This document shows, piece after piece, positions 10,972-39,531 of a DNA stretch of 64,000 bases. The translations under genes and the position numbers were made by a program. The notes beneath the pieces are model-generated. The model had not been told where the DNA came from. It saw nothing but the letters and a program-made list of their open reading frames with translations, and made no database searches. Location: NCBI GenBank assembly GCA_963768055.1, contig CAVYGN010000001.1, positions 800,001 through 864,000 on the forward strand, given 5' to 3'. The stretch's first letter is position 1; each line of letters begins with the position of its first letter. The stretch comes from an uncultured Spirochaetota bacterium. Its GTDB lineage: Bacteria; Spirochaetota; Brevinematia; Brevinematales; JAOACQ01.

Positions 10972-10972
10972 T

Positions 10973-16653: not shown

Positions 16654-17505
16654 CTATTTTTCCTTGAGTTTCGACTTTACTCTTGTCGCTATGAATTCAA
16701 GGACAACAGCAAAGGCCAGGATGAAGTAGGTAATAAGACCCACTTCATGCAGATCGAAATAAAACGTGCTGGACATGAATAAGTCGAAACCTATTCCGGC
16801 CGCCCCCGCCGCGGCCCCCATGGCAACAGCGTTTGAAAAATTCAACTCGAACCGCAGAAAGGTCCAGGACAACAGATATGTCGCCGATGAAGGGAGAACC
16901 GCCTGGAAAACTATATGCAGCCATCTTGCACCTGAGGCCTTCAGAGCGTCTATGACCCCCTTGTCAAGTTCCTCGTAGCACTCTGCATAGGCCTTGGTTA
17001 AATAACCGATCGAGTGGAAAGAGAGGCCTATTACAGCCGCCGTGCTGCCCAATCCTGCCGATACTGCGAAGATCAAGACCCAGAGTATGGAAGGAATGGC
17101 CCGTATAACCGCTACAAAAGCTTTGACAATGACTGTTACTCCTTTCGGGGACAGATTCTGAGCCCCCAGAAGACCAAGAAAAAGCGCAATAAAGCTGCTG
17201 AAGAGGGTAATGAGGATGGATAGTCCTATGGTTATAACTATTTCGACAAAAATATCTAGAATTGAAAGCCTGTAGGAGAAGGGATGAATGAAAATAGTCT
17301 TGAAGTTATTTAATGTATCCAGGACAGCGCCGGGAATATTGACGCTTCCGCCATCCAGGGTTAAAAGGCTGTATACTGTAATGGCAGCTAAGACCGCCAA
17401 TGTGAAACGGACAATGATCGTAGCGCGTGTCAGAGGTTTAATCAACCTCCCGGGTATTTTATTTTCAGGGCTTAGAGACTTCGCGGCTGCTTTTAAATCA
17501 GTCAT
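16654..17505 (-). CDS. phnE: Phosphonate ABC transporter permease
   Basis: RAIPSILW, DALKASGA (EAA-like loop), RFELN and GAAGIGF motifs; operon context. Confidence 0.9.
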   Translation of the reverse strand: MTDLKAAAKSLSPENKIPGRLIKPLTRATIIVRFTLAVLAAITVYSLLTLDGGSVNIPGAVLDTLNNFKTIFIHPFSYRLSILDIFVEIVITIGLSILITLFSSFIALFLGLLGAQNLSPKGVTVIVKAFVAVIRAIPSILWVLIFAVSAGLGSTAAVIGLSFHSIGYLTKAYAECYEELDKGVIDALKASGARWLHIVFQAVLPSSATYLLSWTFLRFELNFSNAVAMGAAAGAAGIGFDLFMSSTFYFDLHEVGLITYFILAFAVVLEFIATRVKSKLKEK

Positions 17506-18287
17506 AGTATTTCCCTTCGAACGATGTTGGATATGGTTTCCATGGCAATGACAGTAATGACGGTGACTATTACAACAAGGCTTGCTACATGGTAATTGAA
17601 GGATTTGTAGTATACATCGAACAAAAAGCCTATGCCCGTACCTGTGAGAAATCCGACCAGTGTTGCATCGCGAATGTTCGTTTCAATCATGAAAAGAAGC
17701 CAGCTTACAACCTGGGGCATGCTTGACGGCAAAACCGCCTGGAAAATAATATGGTAATAAGCGGCTCCTGTTGCACGCAGAGCTTCTACTGTATTTTCGC
17801 CTACTTCATCGAGCGTTTCCATAAAGGCCCGGGTAAGAAATCCCAGAGAACCGAAAAACAGGGCCAGAAAGCCTGTAAGGGAGCTCTGGCTGAAGGCCAG
17901 CATAAGAACCATAGCCCAGGCCACGAGAGGCACGTTCCTGAAAAAAGAGCCTATGCCCCGGGCTAACGCTGTAAAAAATACGTGAACACGGGTGCTGCGC
18001 GACCCCAATAAGGCAAGCGCCATGGCAAAAACGGCAGCTACGACGCTCGAAGCAACAGACAGCAGGATTGTGTCCCTGAGCTTTATTAAAATATCGCCAA
18101 TCCTTGAAAACGAAGGGACGTCGGGATAAAAGTTTGATATGCCCCAGATAAAGGCCCTGTAAATACTGAGGAAGCCCCTGCCGGGGTCATATTGGGTAAT
18201 TATGATCGAACCTGCTGTAAGGACGGCTATCAGGGCAAAGACCAGGAGAGTGCTTTTCCTGCGTTTCGCGAAGATGTCAGCCTGCAT
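17502..18287 (-). CDS. phnE: Phosphonate ABC transporter permease
   Basis: RNVPLVAW, VEALRATGA and ETNIRDATLVG..GTGIG motifs. Confidence 0.9.
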   Translation of the reverse strand: MQADIFAKRRKSTLLVFALIAVLTAGSIIITQYDPGRGFLSIYRAFIWGISNFYPDVPSFSRIGDILIKLRDTILLSVASSVVAAVFAMALALLGSRSTRVHVFFTALARGIGSFFRNVPLVAWAMVLMLAFSQSSLTGFLALFFGSLGFLTRAFMETLDEVGENTVEALRATGAAYYHIIFQAVLPSSMPQVVSWLLFMIETNIRDATLVGFLTGTGIGFLFDVYYKSFNYHVASLVVIVTVITVIAMETISNIVRREIL

Positions 18288-18289
18288 GA

Positions 18290-19090
18290 TTAAACTATCG
18301 CTTCGGTAAGGACGCCGCCTGTATCATGGTCATAGCTTTCTGCTATCTGTTCAGCGCCGTAAATCTCGGTGATCCGATTGCGGGAGAGCTGTGACGGAGG
18401 ACCGTCAAAGTGGATTGAGCCTTTGTTGAACCCGATGATCCGGTGGGAATAATTCAAAGCCACATTCACCTGGTGAAGGCTGATTATCAGGGTTATGCCC
18501 CGGTCCCGGCAAATATTCTTAAGATAGTCCATGATAATCTTTGATGAACCGGGATCCAGGGATGCAATGGGTTCGTCACAGAGTATCATCTTGGGGTTCT
18601 GTACCAGTGCTCTTGCAATACCTACTCTTTGTTTCTGGCCGCCGCTTAGCTGGTCACAGCGTTTGTGTATATGGTCTTCCATACCGAGAATTTCGAGAAT
18701 ATCCCATGCATCCTTTTTTTCCTTCACAGTATAACTGCCGAGGATACCTGAAAGGGTAGATTTATATCCGAGCCTGCCATGAAGTACATTTTCAATGACA
18801 GTCAGGCGCTCCACCAGATTGTGATGCTGAAAAATCATCCCGATTTTCGTTCTCACCTTCCTGAGTTCTGACTTTCGCAGTTTCGAAACTACAACACCGT
18901 TGAAGCAGATTTCCCCGTTCGTCGGATCGGTCATCCTGTTAATGCATCGGAGAAGAGTTGTTTTTCCCGAACCGGAAGCCCCTATAACTGAGACAAATTC
19001 CCCCTCTCTGACTGAGAAGCTTACATCAGCAAGGGCCGGTTTTGTTCCAAGAAAACACTTGGTTACATTTCTAAGTTCTAATAATACCAT
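18290..19090 (-). CDS. phnC: Phosphonate ABC transporter ATP-binding protein
   Basis: GASGSGKT, GMIFQHHNLVERLTVIENVLHGRLG, LSGGQKQRV and DEPIASLDP motifs. Confidence 0.95.
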   Translation of the reverse strand: MVLLELRNVTKCFLGTKPALADVSFSVREGEFVSVIGASGSGKTTLLRCINRMTDPTNGEICFNGVVVSKLRKSELRKVRTKIGMIFQHHNLVERLTVIENVLHGRLGYKSTLSGILGSYTVKEKKDAWDILEILGMEDHIHKRCDQLSGGQKQRVGIARALVQNPKMILCDEPIASLDPGSSKIIMDYLKNICRDRGITLIISLHQVNVALNYSHRIIGFNKGSIHFDGPPSQLSRNRITEIYGAEQIAESYDHDTGGVLTEAIV

Positions 19091-19115
19091 AAGCTCATCC
19101 TCCTGAAAATAGAGG

Positions 19116-19141
19116 AAGGGCGTCAGACAAGTGACGCCCTT
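19116..19141. terminator. Intercistronic hairpin between phnD and phnC (mRNA stabiliser or partial terminator)
   Basis: Perfect 10-bp stem AAGGGCGTCA-GACAAG-TGACGCCCTT; the T-tract is on the plus side only. Confidence 0.55.
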
Positions 19142-19166
19142 TTTTAAACCAATTTAAATACAGATC

Positions 19167-20198
19167 TTATTTAAGCCCGAGAATTTCGCGCATCGTGTCG
19201 TAATCGGCATCGGTGATTTTGACGAAACGATGGGGCTGCATAAAGAGTCCCGCCATTGAAGAACCTTTTGGGCGGAACAGTAATTGATCGTCCTTAACCT
19301 TATCGTCAGTGAGGGCGGTTACTACCTTATCGATGGTTTCCTGGCTCAGGAAGGCGGCGTTGGCTTCGAGAGGGGTATTCAGCACGGGAATAACCTTGAT
19401 AATCACGAATTGAGCGCCGGCAAGGTCAGAGAAAGGTGCTGAAGCGTCTTTTTTAACCTTATAGACAGCGCCGGGCTGTTCGTCGGTTCCGGATGTGAGT
19501 TCGAGATAATTCTGCACATCGATGTCATCAACAGCTGAAACATCTACATTGCCTTTCAGCAGGTTGACAAGCGACAGCTGATGGGATCCTGAAAATACAA
19601 CCTGGCTGAAGAACTTTCCGGCTCCGCCCTGCATGAGGTCGTCCTTGGTAAGGCTCTTCCATTTGCTCTTTGTATGGAAAATGGCCAGGATAGCCGCGGA
19701 AGGCATGTTGAATCCGGATGTCGAACTTGTTGAAACAAATGATATTTTCTTTCCTGCGATGTTGTCGATGGAATAAGTATTTCCGGATTTGTATTTACCT
19801 TCATTCCCTTTTTTAACAAGAAGGCGGCTGTAATACAGCGCATCGCTTATAGTGCCCGATTTGCCGCTTTCAACTATAAGAGGAACAATATTGGTATCCC
19901 TTGCATGGCCGGTAATGTACTCGAAAGGCCCGAAGTAGCCCAATTGGGCGTCCCCCGATTCCAATGCCGCCATGGCGATATTGTAGTCGGTTGTCAGCTT
20001 ATCTACCACCTTGTAGCCAGTTGCATCGGTGATGATTTTTCCGAATTCGGCGCGCATGGCCTTTTCGTTGTCGCCCGAATTGTTGGGCAGCCAGGCCATT
20101 GTAATAACTTTTTGATTCGCACAGCCTGCAAACATTAAGGCCAGAAGAGATGCTGAGATAATACTTTTAAAAACTTTAGGGATCAGTTTCAAAACCAT
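19167..20198 (-). CDS. phnD: Phosphonate ABC transporter substrate-binding lipoprotein
   Basis: Lipobox FAGC, TTDYN, GPFEY, YYS, STSSTSGF.MP and GSHQ motifs; GGAGG RBS before ATG 20198. Confidence 0.9.
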   Translation of the reverse strand: MVLKLIPKVFKSIISASLLALMFAGCANQKVITMAWLPNNSGDNEKAMRAEFGKIITDATGYKVVDKLTTDYNIAMAALESGDAQLGYFGPFEYITGHARDTNIVPLIVESGKSGTISDALYYSRLLVKKGNEGKYKSGNTYSIDNIAGKKISFVSTSSTSGFNMPSAAILAIFHTKSKWKSLTKDDLMQGGAGKFFSQVVFSGSHQLSLVNLLKGNVDVSAVDDIDVQNYLELTSGTDEQPGAVYKVKKDASAPFSDLAGAQFVIIKVIPVLNTPLEANAAFLSQETIDKVVTALTDDKVKDDQLLFRPKGSSMAGLFMQPHRFVKITDADYDTMREILGLK

Positions 20199-20246
20199 TA
20201 TATCCTCCAAAATAATTTTTCTGATGAATTTCTATCATTTTTTTTA

Positions 20247-20434: not shown

Positions 20435-20854
20435 ATGGATGAAAATGCCAGGAATTGGGCAGAATGTCTGACTGACGCTGAAGCAGCCGATATACTCGGC
20501 TTGCTGGAAAAAAAAGAGGATTTAACTATTGGAGATAATGAGCAGGGGATGGTGATGCTGACTGCGAGGGACCCTTTCGGCTGTGATTTTTATGTAGGTG
20601 AAGTGCTTGTAACCGAGGCAGAGGCTGAATACGGGGCTTCGAAGGGCTACGGGATGGTTATGGGAAATAAAGCAGGGCAGGCAAGGGTTCTTGCGGTTTA
20701 TGATGTCGCATTAAGGTCGGGTGATAATGAACTGATCAAAATGATCTCAGAAAAAATGAAAACCGCACGGGAAAGATTTGAAGAAAGAATATCTATTGAA
20801 AGATCGATGACTGCCTCAACGAAGGTAGATTTCGGTTTAATGGCAGAGGGATAG
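20435..20854 (+). CDS. phnG: C-P lyase system protein PhnG
   Basis: GMVMLTARD...FYVGEVLVTEA, GYG and C-terminal ASTKVDF motifs; first gene of the lyase operon. Confidence 0.88.
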   Translation: MDENARNWAECLTDAEAADILGLLEKKEDLTIGDNEQGMVMLTARDPFGCDFYVGEVLVTEAEAEYGASKGYGMVMGNKAGQARVLAVYDVALRSGDNELIKMISEKMKTARERFEERISIERSMTASTKVDFGLMAEG

Positions 20855-20858
20855 GATC

Positions 20859-21413
20859 ATGGAGATCAGGGAAAAAAACAGGCTGACCCTTGATACTTTT
20901 AGAATTCTGATGCGGTCCATGGCTAACCCCGGGATGGTTATAAAGCTTCCGGGTGCAGGATTGGAAAAGGTATGCGAGGTTCTCCTGGACCATGAAGTCA
21001 GCTTCAGCGTTATCGGTTCCGGCGTTCATGACGGCCTTATCAGGAAAATATACGAGATCACTAAATCGGAGTATGTAAGGGCCGATACGGCCGATTACGT
21101 CATTGTCGCAGGCGGTTCAAGCTGCGGCGGCATTAAAAGCCTTAACAGGGGAACGCTTGATTTTCCGGACAAAGGGGCGACAGTCATTTACATGGTCCGG
21201 GAATTGGGGAATGGCGGACTTACCCTCGGCCTCAAAGGCCCCGGGATCGAATCTATAAGGGATTTAACAATAAATGGGGCGGATGCCGGGGATTTAATGG
21301 ATATAAAGGAAATGAATTCTGAATTTCCGCTTGGATTAGACCTTGTCCTGATAGATGATAATGGTTTTGCAAGTTCCATACCCCGTTCATCCTCCATTGA
21401 ATTTAAGGGGTAA
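20859..21413 (+). CDS. phnH: C-P lyase system protein PhnH
   Basis: FR.LMRSMANPG, LLDHEV, GT..FPDKGAT, LKGPGI, FPLGLD and IPRS motifs. Confidence 0.92.
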   Translation: MEIREKNRLTLDTFRILMRSMANPGMVIKLPGAGLEKVCEVLLDHEVSFSVIGSGVHDGLIRKIYEITKSEYVRADTADYVIVAGGSSCGGIKSLNRGTLDFPDKGATVIYMVRELGNGGLTLGLKGPGIESIRDLTINGADAGDLMDIKEMNSEFPLGLDLVLIDDNGFASSIPRSSSIEFKG

Positions 21414-21416
21414 AGA

Positions 21417-22511
21417 ATGGGTTATGTCGCAGTTTCAGGCGGAAGAACAGCCATAGATAATGCCGAGAAATTTCTGAAGTTTCAAAGGTCTGCAAACTCA
21501 GCCGGCGGGTCTGATATTGAAGAGATAAAAAAATCCCTACACTTCCTGGTCGACAGGGTAATGGGCGAGGGTTCCCTTTATGCGCCTGACCTCGCAGCCC
21601 TTGCCGTTTTACAGTCTGCAGGAGATACTTTTGAGGCCTCTTTTATGATCAGGGCTTACAGGACAACACTGCCGAGGTTTTCCTATAGCCTCCCGGCAAA
21701 TACTTTGAATATGAGGGTGATACGAAGGATATCCTCGACGTTCAAGGATATACCCGGGGGCCAGTATCTCGGCCCGACAAGCGATTATACATTGAGGCTT
21801 CTCGATTTTGATATGATCGGTGAAGACTCTGTTATTTTTAAAAAAAACCTTGACGAGATAATGAAAAAAACCGGAATTGATGCTGCTGTACCGGAATCTT
21901 TCCCGGGGCTGGTCGATATCCTTCGCCGGGAAAACCTGATTACCAATAGTCTTTCTTCAAGTATTAAGGAAGCGGAATGTTTCGATGTGACCCGCGAGTC
22001 GCTGTCATTTCCTGCCCCAAGAAGCGCAGCTATGCAGACTATGGCCAGGGGAGAAACGGGCGGTATGCTGGCCCTTGCTTATTCGAACATGCGGGGTTAC
22101 GGATCTGCACACCCTACTATCGGGGAGCTCAGGGTCGGATACGTTCCCATGGAGATAAAACATCCTTATTCGGGCAAGGCTTGCAGGATCGGGGAAGTCC
22201 TTATGACAGAAGCCCAGATTATTTCAGATATGGATATGCAGGACGGGTCGCCGAAATTCGCCCTTGGCTACGGGCTGTGTTTCGGCCATAATGAAACGAA
22301 AGCTATCTCCATGGCTACTCTTGACCGTGGCATGCAGGCCGATATACCGCATTATCCCTCTGAAGATCAGGAATTCGTACTTCTGCATATTGACGGGATC
22401 GAAGCGATGGGTTTCGCCAACCATTTCAAACTGCCACATTATGTTACATTCCAATCGGCTCTTGACAGGCTGCGGGCTTCCCGGGATAAATCCGCTCTTA
22501 AAGGGGAATGA
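21417..22511 (+). CDS. phnI: C-P lyase complex subunit PhnI
   Basis: MGYVAVSGG, DRVMGEGSLY, RRISSTFKDIPGGQYLGPT.DY, HPTIGELRVG and HFKLPHYVTFQS motifs. Confidence 0.96.
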   Translation: MGYVAVSGGRTAIDNAEKFLKFQRSANSAGGSDIEEIKKSLHFLVDRVMGEGSLYAPDLAALAVLQSAGDTFEASFMIRAYRTTLPRFSYSLPANTLNMRVIRRISSTFKDIPGGQYLGPTSDYTLRLLDFDMIGEDSVIFKKNLDEIMKKTGIDAAVPESFPGLVDILRRENLITNSLSSSIKEAECFDVTRESLSFPAPRSAAMQTMARGETGGMLALAYSNMRGYGSAHPTIGELRVGYVPMEIKHPYSGKACRIGEVLMTEAQIISDMDMQDGSPKFALGYGLCFGHNETKAISMATLDRGMQADIPHYPSEDQEFVLLHIDGIEAMGFANHFKLPHYVTFQSALDRLRASRDKSALKGE

Positions 22512-22515
22512 AGCG

Positions 22516-23358
22516 ATGGAACTTAAATTTAATTTCGGCTTTCTGGATGAAAATGCCAAGCGCGAGATCAGGAGAAAAATTTTAAAGGCTATAGCCATAC
22601 CAGGCTACCAGGTTCCGTTCGGATCGAGGGAAATGCCTATAGCCAGGGGTTGGGGCACCGGCGGTCTCCAGATAACTTTATCGATTATCGGGCCTGAAGA
22701 TGTCCTGAAGGTAATAGACCAGGGAAGCGACGATAGCGTCAATGCGGTTAACATCAGGAAATTCATCGCTAAAGTAACAGGCGTCCGGACTACCGAAGAT
22801 ACATCAAAAGCTACCATCATTCAGACCAGGCACAGGATACCCGAGGAAAAACTTAATGAAAACCAGGTCCTTGTATTCCAGGTACCGTTGCCGGAACCCC
22901 TCAGGATCGTGGAACATTCGGAAAAGGAAACGCGCCGTATGCATGCCGAAGCCGATTACAGTTCAATGTGGCTGTATCTTTACGAGAGCATAATCAAGTT
23001 TGGCGAGATAACCCTCGGCGCAGGATATCCTGTAATGGTCAATTCGAGGTACCTGATGTCGCCGAGTCCCATTCCCAGGTTCGATATACCCAAGCTCAGC
23101 ATGGCGGAAACATTGTACCTGTTTTGCGCCGGGAGGGAAAAACGCATTTATGCCATTCCTCCCTATACATTCGTGGAGGGCATAGGATTTGAAGACCATC
23201 CCTTCCGTATTGAGGATTTCAAAGGGCAGACCTGCGATTTATGCGGAAGCTCGGGTACTTATCTTAATGAGATAATTGACAATGAAAGAGGCTCAAGGTC
23301 TTATCAATGCTCGGATACTTCCTGGTGCAGAAAAGTCATGGAAGGGAATAAAATATGA
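22516..23358 (+). CDS. phnJ: Alpha-D-ribose 1-methylphosphonate 5-phosphate C-P lyase (glycyl radical/SAM enzyme)
   Basis: FGFLDENAKREIRR.ILKAIAIPGYQVPF.SRE, GWGTGG, KVIDQG, QTRHRIPE, and CxxC-x21-C followed by SDTSWC. The true start is ATG 22516, not 22264. Confidence 0.97.
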   Translation: MELKFNFGFLDENAKREIRRKILKAIAIPGYQVPFGSREMPIARGWGTGGLQITLSIIGPEDVLKVIDQGSDDSVNAVNIRKFIAKVTGVRTTEDTSKATIIQTRHRIPEEKLNENQVLVFQVPLPEPLRIVEHSEKETRRMHAEADYSSMWLYLYESIIKFGEITLGAGYPVMVNSRYLMSPSPIPRFDIPKLSMAETLYLFCAGREKRIYAIPPYTFVEGIGFEDHPFRIEDFKGQTCDLCGSSGTYLNEIIDNERGSRSYQCSDTSWCRKVMEGNKI

Positions 23359-24227
23359 GGCCAGTTTTAGAGATAAGAAACCTGACGAAAATCTACGGGA
23401 AAGGGTGCCCGGATTGCAGTAATTCCGGGAGTGAAAACGGCAACGGTAATATCTGTTCAAGCTGCCGGTCTGTGTCGGCATGCAAGGATGTTTCATTCAG
23501 CCTTTATGAAGGCGAGGTACTGGGCATTGTCGGCGAGAGCGGGTCGGGCAAGTCGACCCTATTGAAGATGCTTAATTTCGATGAGGAGCCGACCTGCGGC
23601 CTTATGGAGATTGATTCGGGATACCTGTCAAAATCCAGGATACCCGGGTACAGCCTTGATTTTGTAGGGAATGCGAACCTTTTCACTTTGAATCCTTTTA
23701 GAAAAAGGCTCCTCAGAAACCACCTGATGGGCATGGTTTATCAGAACCCGCACCTTGGTTTAAAGATGCATATTTCTTCAGGAGGAAATATAGGGGAAAG
23801 GCTTCTTATGGCCGGATGGAGAAACATCGGATCGATCCGGAGCAGGGCGTCGGAACTCCTTGTTAAGACTGAAGTTCCCCCGGAACGCATGGACGAGCCG
23901 CCTTCAAACTTCAGCGGCGGAATGCAGCAGAGGGTGCAGATCGCTAAAGCCCTTTCCAATAATCCGATAATCCTTTACCTTGACGAACCTACGACCGGCC
24001 TCGACCTTTCCGTCCAGGCACGTGTTCTCGACCTTGTCCGAAGCCTGCAAAAGGAATTGAAATTTTCCATGATCGTAGTTTCTCATGACCTGGGAATAAT
24101 CAGGCATCTTACGAGCCGCACTATCGTGATGAAAAACGGACGCATAGTCGAATCAGGTCTTACAGACCAGGTTCTCGAAGATCCCCAGCACCAGTACACA
24201 CAGCTCCTGGTCCATTCGAATTTATAG
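23355..24227 (+). CDS. phnK: C-P lyase system ABC-type ATPase PhnK
   Basis: GESGSGKST, VYQNP, GGNIGERL, FSGGMQQRVQIA, DEPTTGLDLSVQAR and LEDPQHQYTQLLV motifs. Confidence 0.95.
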   Translation: MRPVLEIRNLTKIYGKGCPDCSNSGSENGNGNICSSCRSVSACKDVSFSLYEGEVLGIVGESGSGKSTLLKMLNFDEEPTCGLMEIDSGYLSKSRIPGYSLDFVGNANLFTLNPFRKRLLRNHLMGMVYQNPHLGLKMHISSGGNIGERLLMAGWRNIGSIRSRASELLVKTEVPPERMDEPPSNFSGGMQQRVQIAKALSNNPIILYLDEPTTGLDLSVQARVLDLVRSLQKELKFSMIVVSHDLGIIRHLTSRTIVMKNGRIVESGLTDQVLEDPQHQYTQLLVHSNL

Positions 24228-24229
24228 AG

Positions 24230-24922
24230 GTGATTATGCTTGAACTCATTAATCTTGCCAAGAATTTTACCCTGCATATGCATAACGGTAAAATAATCGA
24301 GGGTTTCAACGGAGTGAACTTCAGCGTAAAAGAAGGCTCTTCCATGGGAATTTCCGGGCCGAGCGGAGCGGGAAAAAGTTCGATCCTAAAGTGCATATAC
24401 CGCACTTACCTTTCAAGCTCAGGTTTCATCCATTATGAGTCGACGCAATTCGGCAATGTAAATCTTGCCGACGCACCCGAACACATAATAATCAAGATCC
24501 GCGAGAATGAGATAGGTTATATAACCCAGTTTTTAAGGGTTATCCCGAGGGTGCCATGCGATCTTGTGGTGGCCGAACCGCTGCTGCTGACTGGAACCGG
24601 AATGCCGGAAGCGCTTGAAATTTCACGGCGCCTTCTCGGCAGGCTCGGAATACCCGAAAGGCTTTTCGGAGCCTTCCCGGCTACCTTCAGCGGCGGGGAA
24701 CAGCAGAGGGTGAATATCGCCAGGGCTGTTATCCGCTCGCCCCGCCTTCTTCTTCTGGATGAACCGACCGCATCGCTGGATTACAAATCGGCAGGGGCGG
24801 CAATGTGCATTCTTCATGAGCTCAAAAAAAATGGTACGACAATGATCGGAATTTTTCATGACCCGTTTGTCATGAAGGATTTTTCAGATTCAATATACCA
24901 GCTTGAGGAGAAAATACAATGA
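24230..24922 (+). CDS. phnL: C-P lyase system ATPase PhnL
   Basis: KNFTLH, GPSGAGKS, QFLRVIPRV, PATFSGGEQQRVNIAR and IGIFHD motifs. Confidence 0.95.
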   Translation: MIMLELINLAKNFTLHMHNGKIIEGFNGVNFSVKEGSSMGISGPSGAGKSSILKCIYRTYLSSSGFIHYESTQFGNVNLADAPEHIIIKIRENEIGYITQFLRVIPRVPCDLVVAEPLLLTGTGMPEALEISRRLLGRLGIPERLFGAFPATFSGGEQQRVNIARAVIRSPRLLLLDEPTASLDYKSAGAAMCILHELKKNGTTMIGIFHDPFVMKDFSDSIYQLEEKIQ

Positions 24923-26091
24923 AACCATTTAATGGAGTGTTCTCCATTTACAATGTAAATATCATTACCCCGGATGAGGTAATAAGGAGCGGTTCAGTCC
25001 TTGTGGAGAATGGAAAGATTTCAAAGGTTACAGGCGAAAAGATCCTGTCATGTTTCAAGGCCGTTGACGGCAATGGAAATTACCTGATGCCCGGTTTTAT
25101 CGATATTCACAGCGATGTAATAGAAAGGGAGATCGAGTCGAGGCCCGGCACCTTCCTTGCTACAAATATCGCTCTAATGGAACTGGATAAAAAACTTGCA
25201 GCGGCAGGGGTAACGACAATTTATCATTCGGTTTCATTTGCCGACGAGATAGTAATTGTTATCCGTTCACTCGATGTCGTCGACAGTATTGTCAGGGAAA
25301 TAAAGCGTTTGAGGGACAGCCTTCTTATTAAAACCAAAGTGCATACCAGGTACGAGGTAACTTATTCCGGAGGCTACCCTGAAATTGAAAAACTGATGAG
25401 CGAAGGCCTTGTCGACCTTGTCTCAGTTATGGACCATAGCCCGGGTCAGGGTCAGTTCAAGACGGAGGAACAGATCAGGGGATACTACGGGGACAGGTTC
25501 GGGGTCGATAGGAAATCAATCATGGACCTTATCGACAGGAGGATGAAACTTCGTGAAAGGGTGGGTATGGAAAATGCCGTAAAGATGATGAAATCGGCTC
25601 ATTCTCATAAAGTTCCGCTGGCAAGCCATGATGACGATACGAAGGAAAAAGTGAATTTCATGAAAAAGCATGGGGTTAATATTACCGAATTTCCAGTCAG
25701 TATTGAAGCTGTTGAAGAATCAGCATCGTCAGGGATTGCAATAGCACTGGGTTCTCCCAATATACTGAGGGGTTATTCGCATAATAAAAATCTGAGTTCG
25801 CGCGATCTGTTAAAGAACGGGTACGGCGATATAGTATGCTCGGATTATATTCCTTCGACCCTTCTGCACTCGTTGTTTGTAATAAAGGAAACTTGCGGCA
25901 AAACACTGCCTGAGGCATGCCGCCTTTATAGCTATAATCCGGCAATGCACCTGGGGCTATCCGGAGAGTGTGGAGCAATAAGTCCGGGCCTGGACGCCGA
26001 TTTAGTGATTGTCGACAACAATGGTGAAATTCCCAGAATACAGAAAACTTATGTAAAGGGCAGGGAGGTTTATTCTGCATGCATGGTTTAG
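24919..26091 (+). CDS. phnM: Alpha-D-ribose 1-methylphosphonate 5-triphosphate diphosphatase
   Basis: PGFIDIHSD..ERE...RPG, H.RYE, MDHSPGQGQF, ASHDD, EFP, GSPN and SDY motifs. Confidence 0.95.
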   Translation: MKPFNGVFSIYNVNIITPDEVIRSGSVLVENGKISKVTGEKILSCFKAVDGNGNYLMPGFIDIHSDVIEREIESRPGTFLATNIALMELDKKLAAAGVTTIYHSVSFADEIVIVIRSLDVVDSIVREIKRLRDSLLIKTKVHTRYEVTYSGGYPEIEKLMSEGLVDLVSVMDHSPGQGQFKTEEQIRGYYGDRFGVDRKSIMDLIDRRMKLRERVGMENAVKMMKSAHSHKVPLASHDDDTKEKVNFMKKHGVNITEFPVSIEAVEESASSGIAIALGSPNILRGYSHNKNLSSRDLLKNGYGDIVCSDYIPSTLLHSLFVIKETCGKTLPEACRLYSYNPAMHLGLSGECGAISPGLDADLVIVDNNGEIPRIQKTYVKGREVYSACMV

Positions 26092-27032
26092 GCATACGGG
26101 TTCCCGGTGTACAACTTGATAATAAAAAGGATGAATTTATAAAGGCCCTGAGTTATATCGGACAAACAGGTTTCGATTCGATAGAAGTAAGCCCGGATGA
26201 TTTTGACGCTATAAGGACAGGCGAACTTGACATTAATATCGTGAAATCCTTAAAAAAGATATTAAAGGATTTTAATTTCCATCTAAGCGTGCACACGCCG
26301 CTCTTGTTGAATTTATTTAACAGGGATGATCCGGCCCTTCATGAAAAAGTCCTGGAAGCCTGCCTTGATTTTACCGACATTGCCGGGGGCGATCTGCTGG
26401 TTTACCATCCAGGAAGATATGTTGACAACTGCGAGTTTGCCCGTATCGGTAAGGAAAATTACACTTCAGACGAAAAAAAAAGGCTTAAAGAAAATGAGGT
26501 AGAAACTCTAAGGGAATTATCCCTTAGGTATCCTCAAATTACAATCGCCTGTGAAAACCTGAGGTCCTATATTTATCATTCTCCTTACAGTTACGCTGAA
26601 TATCCCTGGGAACTGGCGGAACAGGTTAGGGCTGTAGATAGCGGGAACGTGGGGATGATGATAGATACGGGGCATCTTCTATTAACAGCCAATTATTTCG
26701 GCTTTGATATTTTTGAAAGCGTTTCAATTGCAGGGATGCATCCGGTGCATTTTCATATAAACGATAATCATGGCATACCCACGTATTATACTGAAAAGGA
26801 CAAAAAAGGCCAGCTTTGTTTAGGGAGGGGGGATGAGCATGTTCCGCCGGGAATGGGAACATTTCCATTCGGTAAATTTTTAAGTAAATTTCCTGAATAC
26901 AGCGGCCGGTATATTATCGAATTGACCAGCAGGTATTTTTATCCGGAGAGGATTGAACAATCTTATAAATTTATGGAGAAAACACTGAAAAAGCTCAAGG
27001 TACCTGAGAAGACATTAAGAATTACGGAATAA
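26079..27032 (+). CDS. Sugar phosphate isomerase/epimerase (AP-endonuclease-2-type TIM-barrel) metalloenzyme
   Basis: SVH.P, VYHPG, ACEN, IDTGH, HFHINDNHG, DEH.PPG.G and IIE motifs; overlaps the end of phnM. Confidence 0.82.
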   Translation: MHGLGIRVPGVQLDNKKDEFIKALSYIGQTGFDSIEVSPDDFDAIRTGELDINIVKSLKKILKDFNFHLSVHTPLLLNLFNRDDPALHEKVLEACLDFTDIAGGDLLVYHPGRYVDNCEFARIGKENYTSDEKKRLKENEVETLRELSLRYPQITIACENLRSYIYHSPYSYAEYPWELAEQVRAVDSGNVGMMIDTGHLLLTANYFGFDIFESVSIAGMHPVHFHINDNHGIPTYYTEKDKKGQLCLGRGDEHVPPGMGTFPFGKFLSKFPEYSGRYIIELTSRYFYPERIEQSYKFMEKTLKKLKVPEKTLRITE

Positions 27033-27035
27033 GGG

Positions 27036-27641
27036 ATGAAAATAGGAGTGATCTCGGACATCCATACCGGTGAGTTGCTCAGGCTTGTAATAGTAACAAT
27101 TCCCGGAGGCAACTTTTATAATGAAATTTCAGGAATGATCGGGGCCTTAAGTTCATTGACCGGCTCGAGAACGGCATCTTCATACCTTCCGCATATGACG
27201 CTCAGGACCGGAGTTTTTGTTCCATGTGATGAATCGGACAGTTTTATAAGAGAATTCGGAGAACTTATTAGCGAAGAAAAGGCAATAAAGGTAAAAACCG
27301 AAAGGCTAAGGGTCTTTCCTTACTGGGAGGAGGAAAATCAGAAATTCATAATCCTTTATTCGGTCAGGAAATCCCAGCCGCTTTCTTCCATTAATAGGCG
27401 TCTTTTAAGCTATGAAAAATATAAGAAAAGCGATAAAAGCATATTTCAGCCCCATATCAGCCTTCTCTACGGGGATGTAGACAGGGAGGGTTTCGAGAAA
27501 GCTAAGCAGTTCGTCAGGGAGAGGCCCGAAATCTTCGAAAGAGAATTTACATTCGATCTTGATAACGTCGCCCTGCTATCGCAGGGAAGGGGAGGGAACT
27601 GGTCGGTTTATTATAAGTACAAATTGAGGAGAGAATTATGA
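27036..27641 (+). CDS. 2H phosphoesterase (2'-5' RNA ligase/cyclic phosphodiesterase superfamily)
   Basis: Two Hx(T/S) motifs, PHMTL and FQPHISL; C-terminal strand pattern typical of the family. Confidence 0.85.
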
Positions 27642-28276
27642 CATATATTGAAAATTACAAAATGCCGGGGGAAAAAACGCTTGGAAAATCACCGCTGATA
27701 TCGGAAAATGCGGTCATTTCAAAATCGCGGTTCGGCGAGTATACTGAAATCATGGAACATGTCCGCTTTATTAACTCCAGCCTCGGTGATTTTTCTTATA
27801 TTTGCGAGTATAGCGACATTATTTACACAGAAATAGGGAAATTTTCAAATATTGCCGCTTATTGCAGGATAAACCCGGGAAATCATCCGATGGAAAGGCC
27901 GTCCCTGCATCATTTTACTTACAGGTGTAAACAGTTCGGCTTCATGGATAACGATGATCCGGAGTTTTTCAACTGGCGGTCGATCCAGAAAGTAATAATA
28001 GGCCATGATACCTGGCTCGGGCATGGGGTTATCGTTATGCCCGGAGTGACAATTGGAAACGGGGCTGTGATTGGCAGCGGAGCTGTTGTGACAAAAAACA
28101 TTCCCCCTTATACGATAGCGGCGGGTATTCCGGCAAAGGTTGTCCGGCCGAGATTTCCCCAGGAGATAGCATCTAAAATAATCAAAACGGCATGGTGGGA
28201 CTGGCCGTTTGAAAAAATAAAGGAGAATTTGGAAGACTTCAAGGACATCAGGCGTTTCTTAGCAAGGCATTGTTGA
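27638..28276 (+). CDS. Phosphonate-operon hexapeptide-repeat acetyltransferase (CatB/Vat-like)
   Basis: [58 protein letters not shown] and WWDW motifs; overlaps the previous gene. Confidence 0.88.
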
Positions 28277-34050: not shown

Positions 34051-34533
34051 ATGAATAGTCAAATTCGTTCAGAGGAATTCAGGAAATCTATCGTTCAAAA
34101 GATGTGTATGCCAGGAGGAAAAACAGTATCTGAACTGAGCCAGGAAATAGGAGTATGTGAACAAACCCTTTACAACTGGAGGAAAATGATCCAGAATAAT
34201 GTATCCAGAGGATTCCAGGATAGAAGCCCGAGAGGCTGGAAATTATCTGATAAATATCAGGCGGTAGTAGACGCAGCAAGCCAATCGGGAGAAGAGTTAG
34301 GACAGTGGTTGAGAAAAAATGGTCTCCAGTCGACTCATATCGAACTCTGGAAACAGGAGTGTTTATCAGTGATATCTAATAACTCATACAGAGAAGAAAA
34401 CAAGGGTTTGAAAGCAAAAATCATAGAGTTAGAAAAAGAAATTAACCGTAAGGATAAAACTATAGCCGAGGTTACTTCTCTGCTGGTGCTTAAAAAAAAA
34501 CTGAACAAGCTGTTCGGGATCGAGGAAGATTAA
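34051..34533 (+). CDS. IS3-family transposase OrfA (HTH + coiled coil)
   Basis: HTH TVSELSQEIGV..QTLYNW and leucine-zipper-like ELEKEINRKDK..AE..LLVLKKK; A9 run at 34492-34500. Confidence 0.9.
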   Translation: MNSQIRSEEFRKSIVQKMCMPGGKTVSELSQEIGVCEQTLYNWRKMIQNNVSRGFQDRSPRGWKLSDKYQAVVDAASQSGEELGQWLRKNGLQSTHIELWKQECLSVISNNSYREENKGLKAKIIELEKEINRKDKTIAEVTSLLVLKKKLNKLFGIEED

Positions 34534-35567
34534 CTCCATTGGATATACGCATAGATATCTGTGCCTTGATTAATGAGGCTGTTACGACAGGGGCCAGCAG
34601 GGATAAGGCTTGTGAAGAATCTGGCTATGATATAAGGACCATACAGCGCTGGAATAAAAATCTTGAGGGAGACAGAAGAAAATTGAGAAATGTAATGCCT
34701 TCAAATGCCCTGTCGGCCGAAGAAAGGGAGGAGATCATCTCCTGCTGTTGCAGCGAGAGATTTAGAGATATGACGCCGAATGAAATAGTGCCCATGCTGG
34801 CAGAGGAAGGTCGGTATATAGCATCAGAATCATCTTTTTACCGCGTTTTAAAGGACAATGATTTGCTGCACCATAGATACGAAACGAAGCCGAAAACGGC
34901 AAGGAAAACGCCAAGAGAACTGGAAGCGACGGGTCCTAATCAGGTATGGAGTTGGGATATTACATATATATCCAGTCATATAAAAGGTAAGTATTTCTAC
35001 CTCTATATGATCGAAGATGTCTGGAGCCGTAAGATAGTCGGCTGGAAAATGCACGAGGAGGAAAGCTCTGATCATGCCGCAAGAATGGTGGCAGAGATCG
35101 GAGAAACCATTGATTTGAAAGGCTTGTATTTACATTCTGATAATGGTTCTCCTATGAAAGGGGCTACGATGTTAGCGACCTTGCAGAGGTTACAGGTTAT
35201 GCCGTCGTTTTCAAGGCCGAGTGTAAGTAACGATAACCCTTACTCAGAATCATTGTTTAAAACATTGAAATATAATGTGAAATACCCAGGCAATTTCGAG
35301 ACAATGGAATCGGTAGAAATATGGATGCAAAATTTTGTAGACTGGTATAATAATAAACATCTTCATTCAGGGATCGGATATGTCACACCAGCACAGAGAC
35401 ATGAAGGTAAAGATAAGGCGATACTCCTGAAGAGAGCGGAAACTTATGCGGCTGCAAAAAGCAGACATCCTGAAAGATGGTCAGGAGAATCTAAAAAATG
35501 GGAACGGATAGAATCGGTATTTTTAAACCCGAGTAAGACTAACAAGGAATCGTTGGTTGCGGCGTAA
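34494..35567 (+). CDS. IS3-family transposase OrfB (DDE integrase core), -1 frame relative to OrfA
   Basis: PNQVWSWDITY, HSDNGSP, SNDNPYSESLFKTLKY and WYN..H.HSGI..VTP motifs; the frame is open from the A9 run. Confidence 0.93.
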   Translation, partial: KKTEQAVRDRGRLTPLDIRIDICALINEAVTTGASRDKACEESGYDIRTIQRWNKNLEGDRRKLRNVMPSNALSAEEREEIISCCCSERFRDMTPNEIVPMLAEEGRYIASESSFYRVLKDNDLLHHRYETKPKTARKTPRELEATGPNQVWSWDITYISSHIKGKYFYLYMIEDVWSRKIVGWKMHEEESSDHAARMVAEIGETIDLKGLYLHSDNGSPMKGATMLATLQRLQVMPSFSRPSVSNDNPYSESLFKTLKYNVKYPGNFETMESVEIWMQNFVDWYNNKHLHSGIGYVTPAQRHEGKDKAILLKRAETYAAAKSRHPERWSGESKKWERIESVFLNPSKTNKESLVAA

Positions 35568-36283: not shown

Positions 36284-36335
36284 TTGACATCCGCCCCTCC
36301 ATTTGATATAATATGCAAATGCAAATTATTTGCAT
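36284..36335 (+). promoter_or_regulatory. Consensus sigma70 promoter followed by a Zur/Fur-type palindromic operator
   Basis: TTGACA (36284-36289), N17, TATAAT (36307-36312), then ATGCAAAT-T-ATTTGCAT (36319-36335). Confidence 0.85.
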
Positions 36336-36360
36336 ATTAAAATTCAAAGGAGGAAAATTT

Positions 36361-37296
36361 ATGAGACGCCCGGGAATTATTTTTGCCGCTGTCATAGTCC
36401 TTTCGGCTGTCCTTATGATTGAGTCCTGCGTTGGAAAAAACTCGGCTTCCAGCGGAGGAGGCAAACTGCTGGTCTATTCAAGTTTCTACGCAATGTACGA
36501 CCTTACAAAAAAAATCGGCGGGGAAAGGATCGATCTTGTCAACCTTGTTCCCGCGGGAACGGAACCCCATGAATGGGAACCATCCCCGGGCGATATTGTC
36601 AACCTTGAAAAAGCCGATGTTTTTGTCTATAACGGCGCGAGCATGGAGGGCTGGGTGGACAAGGTAATTCCTGCACTGAAAAACAAAAAATTGATAAGCG
36701 TTGAAACTTCAAAAGAGATCAAACTTCATGAAAATCCGGAAAAGGGTGATAATCCTGTAAAGGGCGAAAATCTCAAATACGATCCGCATGTTTGGCTTTA
36801 TCCGATGAACGCGGTTAAGCAGATGGAAGCCATTATGGAAGCACTGTCCAGGGCCGACCCGGCCGGGGCGGATTATTACAAAAGCAATTTTATCGTTTAC
36901 TCGGAGAAATTTTCCGAACTCGATAAAGAGTACAGGGATGCCCTGGCAAAGGTGAAAAACCGGAACATAGTCGTTTCTCACCAGGCTTTCGGGTACCTTT
37001 GCGAGGCCTACGGGCTTAACCAGGTAGCCATCGAAGGCCTTGAAGCGGATTCGGAGCCTGCCGCTGAAAAAATGGCCGAAATATCCGATTTTGCCAGGAA
37101 AAACGGCGTTAAGTATATCTTTTTCGAAGATCTTGTCAGCCCTAAAGTTGCCGAAGCTCTAGCAAGGGAGATCGGCGCTAAAACCGAAACCTTCAATCCC
37201 CTCGAAGGTCTTTCCGACAAGGAAATCTCAGAAGGAAAGGAATATTTAAGCGTGATGAGAGACAATCTTGCCACACTTGAAAAAGCCTTGAAGTAA
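36361..37296 (+). CDS. Zn/Mn ABC transporter substrate-binding lipoprotein (ZnuA/AdcA-like)
   Basis: EPHEWEP, DPHVWL.P, SHQAFGY and NPLEG motifs; AGGAGG RBS before ATG 36361. Confidence 0.92.
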   Translation: MRRPGIIFAAVIVLSAVLMIESCVGKNSASSGGGKLLVYSSFYAMYDLTKKIGGERIDLVNLVPAGTEPHEWEPSPGDIVNLEKADVFVYNGASMEGWVDKVIPALKNKKLISVETSKEIKLHENPEKGDNPVKGENLKYDPHVWLYPMNAVKQMEAIMEALSRADPAGADYYKSNFIVYSEKFSELDKEYRDALAKVKNRNIVVSHQAFGYLCEAYGLNQVAIEGLEADSEPAAEKMAEISDFARKNGVKYIFFEDLVSPKVAEALAREIGAKTETFNPLEGLSDKEISEGKEYLSVMRDNLATLEKALK

Positions 37297-37407: not shown

Positions 37408-39531
37408 TTATTCTTCCTCTTTATCGATCCCATCATATGTGTTTTTTTCGATCGGCTTGAATATCTTTCTCGATTTTTTTTCCTTTGTCATTTCAGTCTC
37501 TTTAATATAATCATAAATCATTTCGAAGCTGTCCCTTTTTTCAGTCCTCGTCTCCCTGCGGACATATACTTCGTCATGTTTCAGTTCCCAAAGGTTTTCA
37601 GTGTCCCCGAACTGAAAATCGATGATTTTTTTCAGAAATTCCCTGTGCCTTGGATTGTTAACGGGAAAGAGCAGTTCGATCCTCCTGTCAAGGTTCCTTT
37701 CCATCCAGTCTGCGCTTGCAAGGTAATACTCCTCGTCACCGTCATTATAAAAATAATATATCCTGGAATGTTCAAGGTATCTTCCTACCAGTGAAATCAC
37801 TGAAATTTCCCCGCCGTTATCGCCTGGTCCGGGGATGAGGGAGCAGATTCCCCTTATAATCAGCCTTATTATGACCCCGGCCTTCGAGGCCTCGTAAAGC
37901 CTGCTGATAATATCAGGATCGGTCAGGGAATTCATCTTGGCGATGATCGCCGCCTTCCTGCCGCTTTTTGCGCAGACGGTTTCCCTTTCTATCAGGCGGA
38001 TGAACTTCTGTCTCAGATAAAGAGGGGCGATGGTCACTGCGTTCCATTTTTCAGCGAGTGAAAAACCTGTAAGGAGATTGAAAAGGGATGAAATGTCGCC
38101 GGTCAGATTTTCGTCCGTTGTAAACAGGCTGAAATCGCTGTATAGGCGCGCTGTGTTTTCATTGTAATTTCCCGTGGCAAGATGCGCGTAACGCTCAATC
38201 CCCCTTGTTTCTTTGCGTATTATCAGCATAGCCTTCATGTGGGTTTTAAATCCTGCAACACCGTAAGTGACATGGGCGCCCGCATCCTCGAGCTTTCTTG
38301 CCCACTCGATATTCCTTTTTTCGTCGAACCTGGCTTTAAGCTCGTCTATTACGGTAACGTACTTGCCGTTTTCTGCGGCGCGGATCAGGGCCTTTATTAT
38401 TTCAGATTCCGAACTTGTCCTGTAGAGCGTCTGTTTTATAGCTATAACGGCAGGATCATCTGCGGCGGTACTGATAAGTTCGACAACAGGTTCGTAGGAG
38501 TGATAGGGATGAAAGAGTATTATGTCGCGGTCCCTGACGGCCTTAAAAATATTCTTGTTTTTAAAATCACTGGGATAAACGGGAGTGACGGTTTTGAATT
38601 TAAGATCTTCTTTATTAATAATATTGTAGAGCTGCATTAGATCTTTTAAATGGATAAAGCCGTCAACAGGGTAGCCGTCTTCTTCACCCAGGCCGTTTTC
38701 TTCGCAAATAATTTGTATAACGCTATCGGGAATGTCCCTCTCATATTCCAGCCGGACGGCGGAACGGCGGTGCATTCTCTTTATCGAGGTCTCTATTTCT
38801 TTAAGAAGGTTAGGGGCGTCTTCCTCCTGAAGGCTTATATCTGCATCTCTCGTGATCTTCACCACATTGCAGGACGTCACTTCATATCCGTTATATAATT
38901 TGTGAATAAACAGCCGTATTATGTTTTCAATTGGGACAAAAGCCTTGCTCTTTATACCCGAATAAAAACGGCCGAAAACATTTGTCGGGATCTCAACGAA
39001 GGAGAGGGTACTTTTTTCTAAAACACCCTTCTCGTCCGGCTTGAGGCCGATGGCCAGGTAAAGCCTTCCTGTCACCAGGGTAATAAAAGGCATGGTTGGG
39101 CCTATGGATAGAGGGGTTAGTGATATCTTCAGCTCGTTATCGAAATAGGGTTCAAGCTCATCCTTTAGGGCCGTAAGTTCATCCTTATCCAATAAAAGTT
39201 TTATTCCATTCTCGGAGAGAGAGGGAACGATTTCCCCGTAAAGGATATCGAATTGCTTTTTCAGCATGTCAAGTACATGGGCTCTGATCGCTTTAATCTG
39301 CACAGATGGGGGGATGGACGGATAATCCGTGGTTTCCGATATTTTTGCGGTGATCTGGTTTTTTAAAACTGCTACGCGTATCATGAAAAACTCTTCAAGG
39401 TTAGAAGCGCTTATCGATAAAAACTTTAATTTTTCCAGGAGGGGGTTGCCGGGCCTGGCGGCTTCGAAAATAACCCTTTCGTTGAAATTAAGCCAGCTGT
39501 ATTCCCTGTTGATTATATTATAGGCGCTCAT
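37408..39531 (-). CDS. ppk1: Polyphosphate kinase 1
   Basis: NRE.SWL.FN.RV, NLEEFFMIRVA, HPYHS, IKQTLYR, ELKARFDE..NI.W, KTH.K, TGNYN, AKMNSL, LEHSRI and SADWM.RNL motifs; start at ATG 39531. Confidence 0.96.
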   Translation of the reverse strand: MSAYNIINREYSWLNFNERVIFEAARPGNPLLEKLKFLSISASNLEEFFMIRVAVLKNQITAKISETTDYPSIPPSVQIKAIRAHVLDMLKKQFDILYGEIVPSLSENGIKLLLDKDELTALKDELEPYFDNELKISLTPLSIGPTMPFITLVTGRLYLAIGLKPDEKGVLEKSTLSFVEIPTNVFGRFYSGIKSKAFVPIENIIRLFIHKLYNGYEVTSCNVVKITRDADISLQEEDAPNLLKEIETSIKRMHRRSAVRLEYERDIPDSVIQIICEENGLGEEDGYPVDGFIHLKDLMQLYNIINKEDLKFKTVTPVYPSDFKNKNIFKAVRDRDIILFHPYHSYEPVVELISTAADDPAVIAIKQTLYRTSSESEIIKALIRAAENGKYVTVIDELKARFDEKRNIEWARKLEDAGAHVTYGVAGFKTHMKAMLIIRKETRGIERYAHLATGNYNENTARLYSDFSLFTTDENLTGDISSLFNLLTGFSLAEKWNAVTIAPLYLRQKFIRLIERETVCAKSGRKAAIIAKMNSLTDPDIISRLYEASKAGVIIRLIIRGICSLIPGPGDNGGEISVISLVGRYLEHSRIYYFYNDGDEEYYLASADWMERNLDRRIELLFPVNNPRHREFLKKIIDFQFGDTENLWELKHDEVYVRRETRTEKRDSFEMIYDYIKETEMTKEKKSRKIFKPIEKNTYDGIDKEEE

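Follow-up and report, generated by a model that had tools for sequence, protein, structure and literature searches.

Here we describe a variant carbon-phosphorus (C-P) lyase operon in a 64,000-nucleotide stretch of DNA (the window; positions 800,001 to 864,000 of contig CAVYGN010000001.1, GenBank assembly GCA_963768055.1) from an uncultured Spirochaetota bacterium of the order Brevinematales. Past phnM, the operon continues into genes for a triosephosphate isomerase (TIM) barrel protein, a 2H phosphoesterase, and a hexapeptide-repeat transferase. We propose that these three genes form the accessory tail of the operon and that its key part would be the barrel protein (here referred to as TIM), the member of a phn-specific AP_endonuc_2 subfamily with a putative trinuclear-metal phosphoesterase site. 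We are highly confident that TIM is an accessory protein dedicated to the C-P lyase pathway. We also think it probable that TIM acts as a phosphoesterase on 5-phosphoribosyl 1,2-cyclic phosphate (PRcP) or on ribose bisphosphate, yielding ribose 5-phosphate and inorganic phosphate (Pi).

Bacteria draw phosphorus from phosphonates, among them methylphosphonate and glyphosate, mainly by way of C-P lyase, a route that also releases methane. Assimilation of the phosphorus requires that PRcP be opened and that a phosphate then be either pyrophosphorylated, by PhnN to give phosphoribosyl pyrophosphate, or hydrolyzed. In gene surveys, the pathway is usually judged against the gene set of E. coli. PRcP is given as the product of PhnJ in PMC3840354. 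The C-P lyase core of the window and the three genes behind it are as follows.

20435-26091, plus strand: phnG, phnH, phnI, phnJ, phnK, phnL, and phnM, the C-P lyase core (Pfam and NCBIfam)
26079-27032, plus strand: TIM, 317 amino acids, PF01261 AP_endonuc_2 ("xylose isomerase-like TIM barrel"), E = 2.1e-27
27036-27641, plus strand: 2H phosphoesterase, 201 amino acids, PF13563 at 31.3 bits (cut-off 27) and PF07823 CPDase at 26 bits (cut-off 21)
27638-28276, plus strand: hexapeptide-repeat transferase, 212 amino acids, Hexapep and TIGR03308 at 276.4 bits (cut-off 201.65)

All seven core genes are present in one orientation, with matches to PF06754, PF05845, PF05861 (E = 2.5e-137), PF06007 (E = 1.9e-142), TIGR02323, TIGR02324, and NF011990 (PhnM, 407 bits). 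The listed phnJ open reading frame (ORF), at 22264-23358, begins too early; its Pfam match runs from residue 88 onward. The ATG of the TIM gene, at 26079, lies 13 nucleotides (nt) within phnM (stop codon TAG, 26089-26091) and has GGGAGG upstream of it. Between the TAA stop of the TIM gene and the ATG of the 2H gene (27036) there are 3 nt, and an ATGA overlap at 27638 joins the 2H stop to the transferase start. These overlapping or abutting junctions, from phnM to the transferase, indicate translational coupling. An earlier reading of the letters and ORFs (the sequence-only reading) had described phnGHIJKLM followed, with overlapping or abutting stops and starts, by a TIM barrel, 2H protein, and hexapeptide transferase, and the ORFs, coordinates, and junctions it gave were borne out.

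The TIM gene is single-copy in the window's genome, and its close homologs are found beside phn genes. Among species-representative genomes, we recovered nine genome-contig TIM loci, from Brevinematales, other Spirochaetota, Desulfonatronovibrio, Desulfobacterales, and Chitinispirillum, two of which (L010 and L013) reach contig ends. TIM lies directly after phnM in all nine. The genes that follow vary: a GNAT protein occupies the 2H position in L008 and L012, and the transferase comes directly after TIM in L009 and L011. PhnJ was found in 10 genomes of a 301-genome Spirochaetota sample. In the six other PhnJ genomes of the window's family, several of which are the same genomes as those behind L005-L010, TIM is always about 3 kb from phnJ; three PhnJ genomes of another Spirochaetota family are without it. 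A 401-genome Desulfobacterota sample held TIM in 14 genomes (E ≤ 1e-86) and PhnJ in 26, and every genome with TIM also had PhnJ. The two genes share a contig within 6 kb of each other in 13 of the 14, and in the remaining genome (G647) they sit on separate short contigs.

A metagenome scan, in which the best 80 of 163 relatives were analyzed, set a limit to this linkage. Each of the 10 loci at 32% identity or above carried phnM or other C-P lyase genes beside TIM, while none of the 70 weaker loci (L053-L122) had PhnG, PhnH, PhnI, PhnJ, PhnL, or PhnM there; one of these, L053 at 31% identity, is a 1.5-kb contig without flank. A few PhnC matches and a lone 38%-identity PhnK match (L109) among the weaker loci were set aside as cross-hits to ABC ATPases. 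The boundary of the TIM subfamily thus lies near 32% identity. Four metagenome loci (L054-L057) encode full-length relatives with 25-28% identity (E of 1e-25) and no nearby C-P lyase core genes and represent a sister subfamily. The wider superfamily fringe, seen in a representative-library search that carries no genomic context, comprises 158 clusters at a threshold of E ≤ 1e-30 and 507 when this is relaxed to E ≤ 1e-10. Neither Pfam nor NCBIfam holds a model specific to the phn-linked TIM subfamily. The phn-linked TIM spans three phyla (Spirochaetota, Desulfobacterota, and Fibrobacterota) and four layouts, written here with single letters for the phn genes.

Layout A: G-H-I-J-K-L-M-TIM-(2H or GNAT)-transferase
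Layout B: M-C-D-E-TIM-G-H-I-J-K-L
Layout C: H-I-J-K-L-M-C-D-E-TIM-transferase
Layout D (L036-L042): C-E-E-transferase-G-H-I-J-K-L-M-TIM

Layout D ends with TIM, its sole accessory hydrolase, and often has an OmpR-type regulator near the operon.

The canonical accessory enzymes were not found in the window. No GntR (PhnF), GNAT (PhnO), PhnN, or PhnP domain was detected at E ≤ 1e-5 in 46 further window ORFs of at least 90 amino acids, nor, with Pfam and NCBIfam, in the 19 ORFs of the region from 16.6 to 33.1 kb; the absence of phnN, phnO, phnP, and phnF from the window that the sequence-only reading had noted therefore holds for the window's ORFs. We extended the search to the whole genome (3.69 Mb in two contigs, 94.75% complete), where neither phnN nor phnP exceeded its family cut-off. 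The best match to PhnP scored 84.7 bits against a cut-off of 272 and is a generic metallo-beta-lactamase (MBL) hydrolase 420 kb away, to which NF038231 and PRK02113 fit far better. The best match to PhnN (35.6 bits, cut-off 156) is guanylate kinase. For PhnPP (NF041661), the best match in the genome reached 63.8 bits against a cut-off of 500. This match, the sole cog0613-type PHP protein, is not linked to the operon and fits models of RNase RNM (132 bits) and pAp-phosphatase (124 bits) better; its gene adjoins methionyl aminopeptidase. DUF1045 (PF06299) gave no match in the window's genome; the same model matched five Desulfobacterota genomes, so the search with it works. Five further TIM genomes, reached via L005, L006, L008, L009, and L011, likewise have no PhnP or PhnN over cut-off. 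In G186, from the same genus as the window, a PhnP-like MBL hydrolase (C1:1981449-1982195) matches as two pieces (model positions 2-87 and 127-248); this gene may be disrupted, while the phn-TIM-2H operon of that genome is intact.

The 26 Desulfobacterota genomes with PhnJ, which are related to one another, allowed genomes with and without TIM to be compared.

PhnN (E ≤ 1e-20): 0 of 14 genomes with TIM, 7 of 12 without
DUF1045: 0 of 14 genomes with TIM, 5 of 12 without
PhnP over cut-off: 0 of 14 genomes with TIM, 1 of 12 without

In the genomes without TIM, each PhnN match lies beside phnJ (four of them above cut-off), and each DUF1045 match lies beside both phnJ and PhnN (5 of 5 with PhnN). 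Homologs of the PHP protein show no such pattern. They occur in 10 of 14 genomes with TIM and 7 of 12 without, and are unlinked to phnJ in all 17 carriers, and we accordingly dismissed the housekeeping PHP homolog as a hidden PhnPP. The neighborhood survey that the sequence-only reading had called for shows TIM co-occurring with phnJ and anticorrelated with PhnN, PhnP, and DUF1045.

The distribution of TIM on a maximum likelihood tree of PhnJ (37 rows, 36 of them distinct, as L010 and L016 are the same genome) indicates exchange at a fixed position. Genomes with TIM do not form one clade; the label changes seven times, and at least six changes are forced by well-supported branches. L039, a phnM-TIM operon of genome G662, is sister at 100/100 to L027 of genome G588, in which PhnN (121246-121773) and PhnP (120407-121147) occupy the slot after phnM. 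Repeated swaps of modules at one slot are a signature of non-orthologous displacement. L015, from another spirochete family, offers a further variant: phnH-I-J-K-G-L-M is followed, in this order, by a TIGR03308-like transferase, a 285-amino-acid PHP protein (4666-5523, minus strand), and phnC-D-E. The best NCBIfam match of this PHP protein is PhnPP NF041661 (193.5 bits, cut-off 500), and a PDB search (2yb1, 3e0f) places it in cog0613; by this best match, a known PRcP enzyme fills the accessory position there. Upstream in L015 are an alkaline phosphatase and a second PhnM-like amidohydrolase.

We examined the fold and the candidate active site of TIM with an alignment (A1) of the window's protein and 23 homologs, drawn from the 24 found in a word-indexed search with fragment P0022 omitted. 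A1 has 28 invariant columns. An AlphaFold2 model built on it is a (beta/alpha)8 barrel with a predicted local distance difference test score of 87.1 and a predicted template modeling score of 0.88, in which two loops (residues 117-124 and 241-249) are of low confidence yet highly conserved. Foldseek matched the model to MJ1311 (3wqo), ketose 3-epimerases, UlaE, and endonuclease IV, all with E values of 1e-10 to 1e-14, and superposition on endonuclease IV (1qtw) gave a Z score of 23.6 over 259 residues with a root mean square deviation of 3.2. All matches were TIM barrels within about 3 Z units of one another, and we rejected the whole-fold search as a means of telling endonuclease IV-like from epimerase-like function.

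The residues at the candidate metal site are more specific. Nine positions of TIM (H72, H110, E159, D196, H199, H226, D252, H254, and E281) form a candidate site corresponding to H69, H109, E145, D179, H182, H216, D229, H231, and E261 of E. coli endonuclease IV (Nfo), which are reported to be the ligands of its three zinc ions (Hosfield et al. 1999); the E. coli nfo sequence bears these residue types at all nine numbers. Comparison of the TIM family with Nfo by hhalign paired H72 with H69, H110 with H109, E159 with E145, D196 with D179, and H199 with H182. MAFFT paired H110/H109, E159/E145, D196/D179, H199/H182, H226/H216, D252/D229, H254/H231, and E281/E261 and also showed a D-x-H-x3-G-x-G motif common to the two proteins. 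All 28 phn-linked TIMs compared retain the nine positions, even the layout B and C proteins, whose identity is only about 35%. The ketose 3-epimerase TM0416 has 3 residues where TIM has 25, among them D252-E-H254, with flanks that align on both sides; through this gap, TM0416 lacks the ligands of the third metal, and TIM carries extra candidate H, H, and D-x-H ligands beyond the TM0416 site. The ketose 3-epimerase and sugar isomerase branch of PF01261, to which the fold of TIM is nearest, is marked by a single E-D-H-E metal site that has no D-x-H for a third metal. Judged by sequence, the nine endonuclease IV-type ligands speak for a phosphoesterase and against an isomerase or epimerase. The sequence-only reading had TIM acting on ribose bisphosphate as an isomerase, epimerase, or phosphatase; the last of these is favored by the nine ligands over the other two.

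TIM does not appear from its sequence to be an Nfo ortholog. Identity with Nfo is about 21%, and the context of TIM is phosphonate catabolism, not DNA repair. Its closest solved relative by sequence is the archaeal protein MJ1311 (PDB 3wqo; E = 1.3e-19), with which all motifs align and which has no known phn context. MJ1311 reportedly conserves the nine endonuclease IV residues and lacks the DNA-binding groove. The only NCBIfam match of the TIMs is CbiR NF041277, with E values of 2.4e-4 to 6e-8 and scores of 20.7-32.6 bits (20.7 for the window's protein), far under the cut-off of 105. A preprint (bioRxiv 10.1101/2020.09.02.280537) describes CbiR, which acts in cobamide remodeling, as a member of the same superfamily and as a metal-dependent phosphodiesterase for small molecules, with a ribosyl phosphate bond as the one that it cleaves. 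The superfamily therefore includes a small-molecule phosphodiesterase, a precedent for the activity that we propose for TIM.

Taken with the operon contents, these features suggest how TIM may act. Its operons are without PhnN and often without any other hydrolase, and the simplest reading is that TIM takes PRcP to ribose 5-phosphate and Pi; since many operons with TIM have no 2H gene, its part is probably not limited to processing what 2H makes. TIM would hydrolyze PRcP, the ribose bisphosphate derived from it, or both. The net reaction would be that of PhnPP, and both PhnP and the PhnN kinase would be unneeded. Endonuclease IV removes both 3'-phosphate monoesters and 3'-phosphoglycolate diesters, and diesterase and monoesterase activity on one site thus has precedent. 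We suggest more tentatively that TIM strips both PRcP ester bonds alone, which would make it a fourth, independently evolved PRcP enzyme after PhnP (an MBL protein), PhnPP (a PHP protein), and the predicted 2H proteins.

The proposed role can be set beside those of the known enzymes. In E. coli, PhnP and PhnN act on the substrate that we propose for TIM, and their genes can occupy the same slot after phnM, as in L027 compared with L039. PhnP, however, has an MBL fold unrelated to that of TIM and produces ribose 1,5-bisphosphate, which needs PhnN, an enzyme found in none of the 14 TIM genomes. The closest functional analog is PhnPP, the Elen0235-type PHP cyclic phosphate dihydrolase (NF041661), which reportedly (Ghodge 2013) uses a trinuclear metal site to cut both ester bonds of PRcP, giving ribose 5-phosphate and Pi without PhnN. 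Its PHP fold has no sequence relation to the AP_endonuc_2 TIM.

The 2H phosphoesterase appears to be confined to few genomes. It has the two motifs of the 2H superfamily, H53-x-T55 and H140-x-S142, and scores above cut-off with the Pfam clan models; both HxT/S motifs are invariant in six of six aligned sequences, an alignment from which the window's protein itself (P0025) and the fragment P0029 were omitted. The subfamily is very small, with five matches including itself among 5.8 billion proteins, and where context exists it was found only between TIM and the transferase (the window, L005, L006, L007, L017, and L043). It is present in three of the nine species-representative genome-contig TIM loci; the window's 2H is an optional add-on of one spirochete lineage. 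One metagenome locus, L044 (6941-8277), has three phosphoesterases in a row, namely TIM (54% identity), a calcineurin-like metallophosphoesterase, and a diverged 2H (33% identity, without a Pfam match).

The plant and yeast cyclic phosphodiesterase CPDase (PF07823; 1fsi) belongs to the 2H enzymes and cleaves the ring of a ribose 1'',2''-cyclic phosphate. The window's 2H passes PF07823, while its sequence relation to CPDase, whose context is eukaryotic tRNA splicing, is very weak; the nearest solved structures are YjcG (2d4g, E = 0.022) and CPDase (1fsi, E = 0.042). By analogy with this enzyme, the 2H protein most likely opens the 1,2-cyclic phosphate in the window's lineage. In what we infer of the substrates, the products, the bond cut by each enzyme, and the division of labor between TIM and 2H, the added 2H would open the ring to leave the 1-phosphate, ribose 1,5-bisphosphate, much as CPDase acts on ADP-ribose 1'',2''-cyclic phosphate, and TIM would then remove the remaining monoester. 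PMC3840354, citing Huang 2005, already proposes that the 2H protein DUF1045/RcsF replaces PhnP in clusters without phnP; a replacement of PhnP by DUF1045 is also put forward in PMC3266647, which counts DUF1045 in 78 of 223 phn operons, mostly beside phnN. DUF1045 and the window's 2H thus share the 2H superfamily and a proposed part in PRcP opening, but PF06299 does not match the window's protein even at E ≤ 1, and DUF1045 travels with PhnN (5 of 5), whereas the window's 2H travels with TIM and without PhnN. We retain as a proposal the earlier suggestion that the 2H protein opens PRcP; the idea was already in print for DUF1045/RcsF, and the gene is optional among TIM loci.

The third gene is less novel. 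By its TIGR03308 score and its phn context, the transferase is a [quoted passage not shown] and, on this sequence assignment, belongs to a curated phn-linked family that is already known, and not to a non-canonical module as had been supposed. It was also suggested to fill the PhnO role. In L008, L021, and L022, however, it coexists with a GNAT protein whose best or near-best NCBIfam match, below cut-off, is the PhnO model, and this makes it less likely that the transferase merely stands in for PhnO.

Several observations weigh against the proposal that TIM is the PRcP phosphoesterase of these operons. By VIA-align, the model is slightly closer to a ketose 3-epimerase (5h1w, Z score of 26.4) and to MJ1311 (3wqo, 26.3) than to endonuclease IV (1qtw, 23.6), and a search at E ≤ 0.001 with the nfo model TIGR00587 (cut-off 129.65 bits) did not return the window's TIM. 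Five of the 12 Desulfobacterota genomes with PhnJ and without TIM (G335, G385, G530, G543, and G625; loci L019, L023, L034, L035, and L020) also lack PhnP, PhnN, and DUF1045, so C-P lyase operons can lack a recognizable PRcP enzyme, and unlinked housekeeping enzymes may act in its place. By PhnJ, two of these loci (L020 and L035) are closely related to layout B TIM operons yet have no TIM, and no obvious substitute for it was seen in their neighborhoods. Many of the genomes are incomplete metagenome-assembled genomes, some cut at contig ends, such as G530, whose contig stops about 1 kb past phnJ. Because the sampled genomes are related, the PhnN contrast (0 of 14 versus 7 of 12) is no formal test. 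Away from the operon, the window's genome does encode a PHP phosphoesterase and an MBL hydrolase of generic type, and if TIM performs both steps, an added 2H is hard to account for.

We weighed three alternatives. The structural neighbors would suit a sugar-phosphate isomerase or epimerase that rearranges ribose bisphosphate made by 2H and leaves another enzyme to free the phosphate: the best of them are ketose 3-epimerases and UlaE, and homologs are named "sugar phosphate isomerase/epimerase" in databases. We consider such a role quite unlikely, given the invariance of all nine endonuclease IV ligands, including the D-x-H that is missing from TM0416, and given that most TIM operons are without 2H, another hydrolase, or a kinase, so that the phosphorus would never be freed. 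A role before C-P cleavage, for example in de-esterifying phosphonate esters or phosphonolipid head groups while housekeeping enzymes handle PRcP, seems somewhat less improbable but still unlikely. The five PhnJ genomes without any recognizable PRcP enzyme and the unlinked MBL hydrolase and PHP phosphoesterase of the window's genome are consistent with it, as is the gene order of layouts B and C, where TIM comes immediately behind phnE of the transporter. It leaves unexplained the exclusion of PhnN, DUF1045, and PhnP and the swap of phnN-phnP for TIM between sister operons, and the PhnP-like MBL hydrolase of G186 may be broken though the phn-TIM operon there is intact. We give very little credence to the idea that 2H is the sole PRcP enzyme and that TIM is an ordinary DNA-repair endonuclease IV lodged in the operon by chance. 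No nfo over cut-off was found in the genome and the nine ligands are those of Nfo, but the nfo model passes over the window's TIM. Every locus at 32% identity or above is linked to phn genes, in three phyla and four gene orders, and most of them have no 2H; MJ1311, the closest solved relative, reportedly has no DNA-binding groove.

If TIM is indeed a phosphoesterase of the C-P lyase pathway, the endonuclease IV metal centre would gain a new catalytic use on a small sugar phosphate, and MJ1311-like proteins, with an "endonuclease IV site without a DNA groove," would receive a first physiological function. It would also define a kinase-free branch of C-P lyase in anaerobic Spirochaetota, Desulfobacterota, and Fibrobacterota and supply a clean annotation marker bounded near 32% identity. 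In the Desulfobacterota sample, 14 of 26 PhnJ genomes carry the unannotated TIM in place of PhnP and PhnN, and pathway reconstructions would consequently miss the phosphorus-delivering step. Non-orthologous replacement at the PRcP step (PhnP, PhnPP, and the predicted DUF1045) and the curated hexapeptide family are already known; new are an AP_endonuc_2 barrel with an endonuclease IV-type site as a conserved phn partner and its proposed role, which appears in no paper that we found. No paper linking AP_endonuc_2 or a TIM barrel to C-P lyase was found in a literature search that lacked most subscription journals and supplements. The possible new recycling route raised by the sequence-only reading thus stands for TIM, which is phn-linked and unreported in the literature found, with the 2H and transferase roles less novel than it had supposed.

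The genes around the operon include a phosphonate transporter, transcribed divergently from phnG.

16654-20210, minus strand: phnE2, phnE1, phnC, and phnD (phosphonate ABC transporter)

The two PhnE proteins score 178.7 and 198.2 bits with the NCBIfam model TIGR01097, both under its cut-off of 216.7, whereas PhnC is above cut-off with TIGR02315 (335 bits); PF12974 (Phosphonate-bd) was also matched in the transporter set. The genes 3' of the transferase, for Hsp15, a nitroreductase, and RodA, are convergent or unrelated. Promoter and terminator scans returned chance-level counts (19 versus 16.0 expected and 11 versus 10.5 expected, respectively), and Rfam had no match within the window. No RNA data sets covering 22264-28276 were listed, parts of the region being present in metagenome DNA runs only.

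Elsewhere in the window, phosphate-economy genes lie near the phn cluster (2352-4823 and 37408-41066) and encode an H+-pyrophosphatase, the polyphosphate kinase PPK1, and a Ppx/GppA-HD protein. A zinc/manganese uptake set (36313-37296 and 43935-46019) comprises ZnuA and then a Fur-family regulator, an ABC-3 permease, and an ATPase; its position 10-20 kb from a putative tri-metal enzyme is probably a coincidence. A complex I/Mbh-type hydrogenase cluster, including a HycI protease, occupies 5038-14984. Within it, the gene for a NuoH/HycD-like membrane subunit (PF00146, 13143-14101) is split into two overlapping ORFs matching profile positions 8-127 and 124-296, the result of a frameshift or an assembly error. 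Two insertion sequences, at 34051-35567 and 57053-58390, are an IS3-type element (HTH_Tnp_1 and rve) and one with a DDE_Tnp_1_4 transposase.

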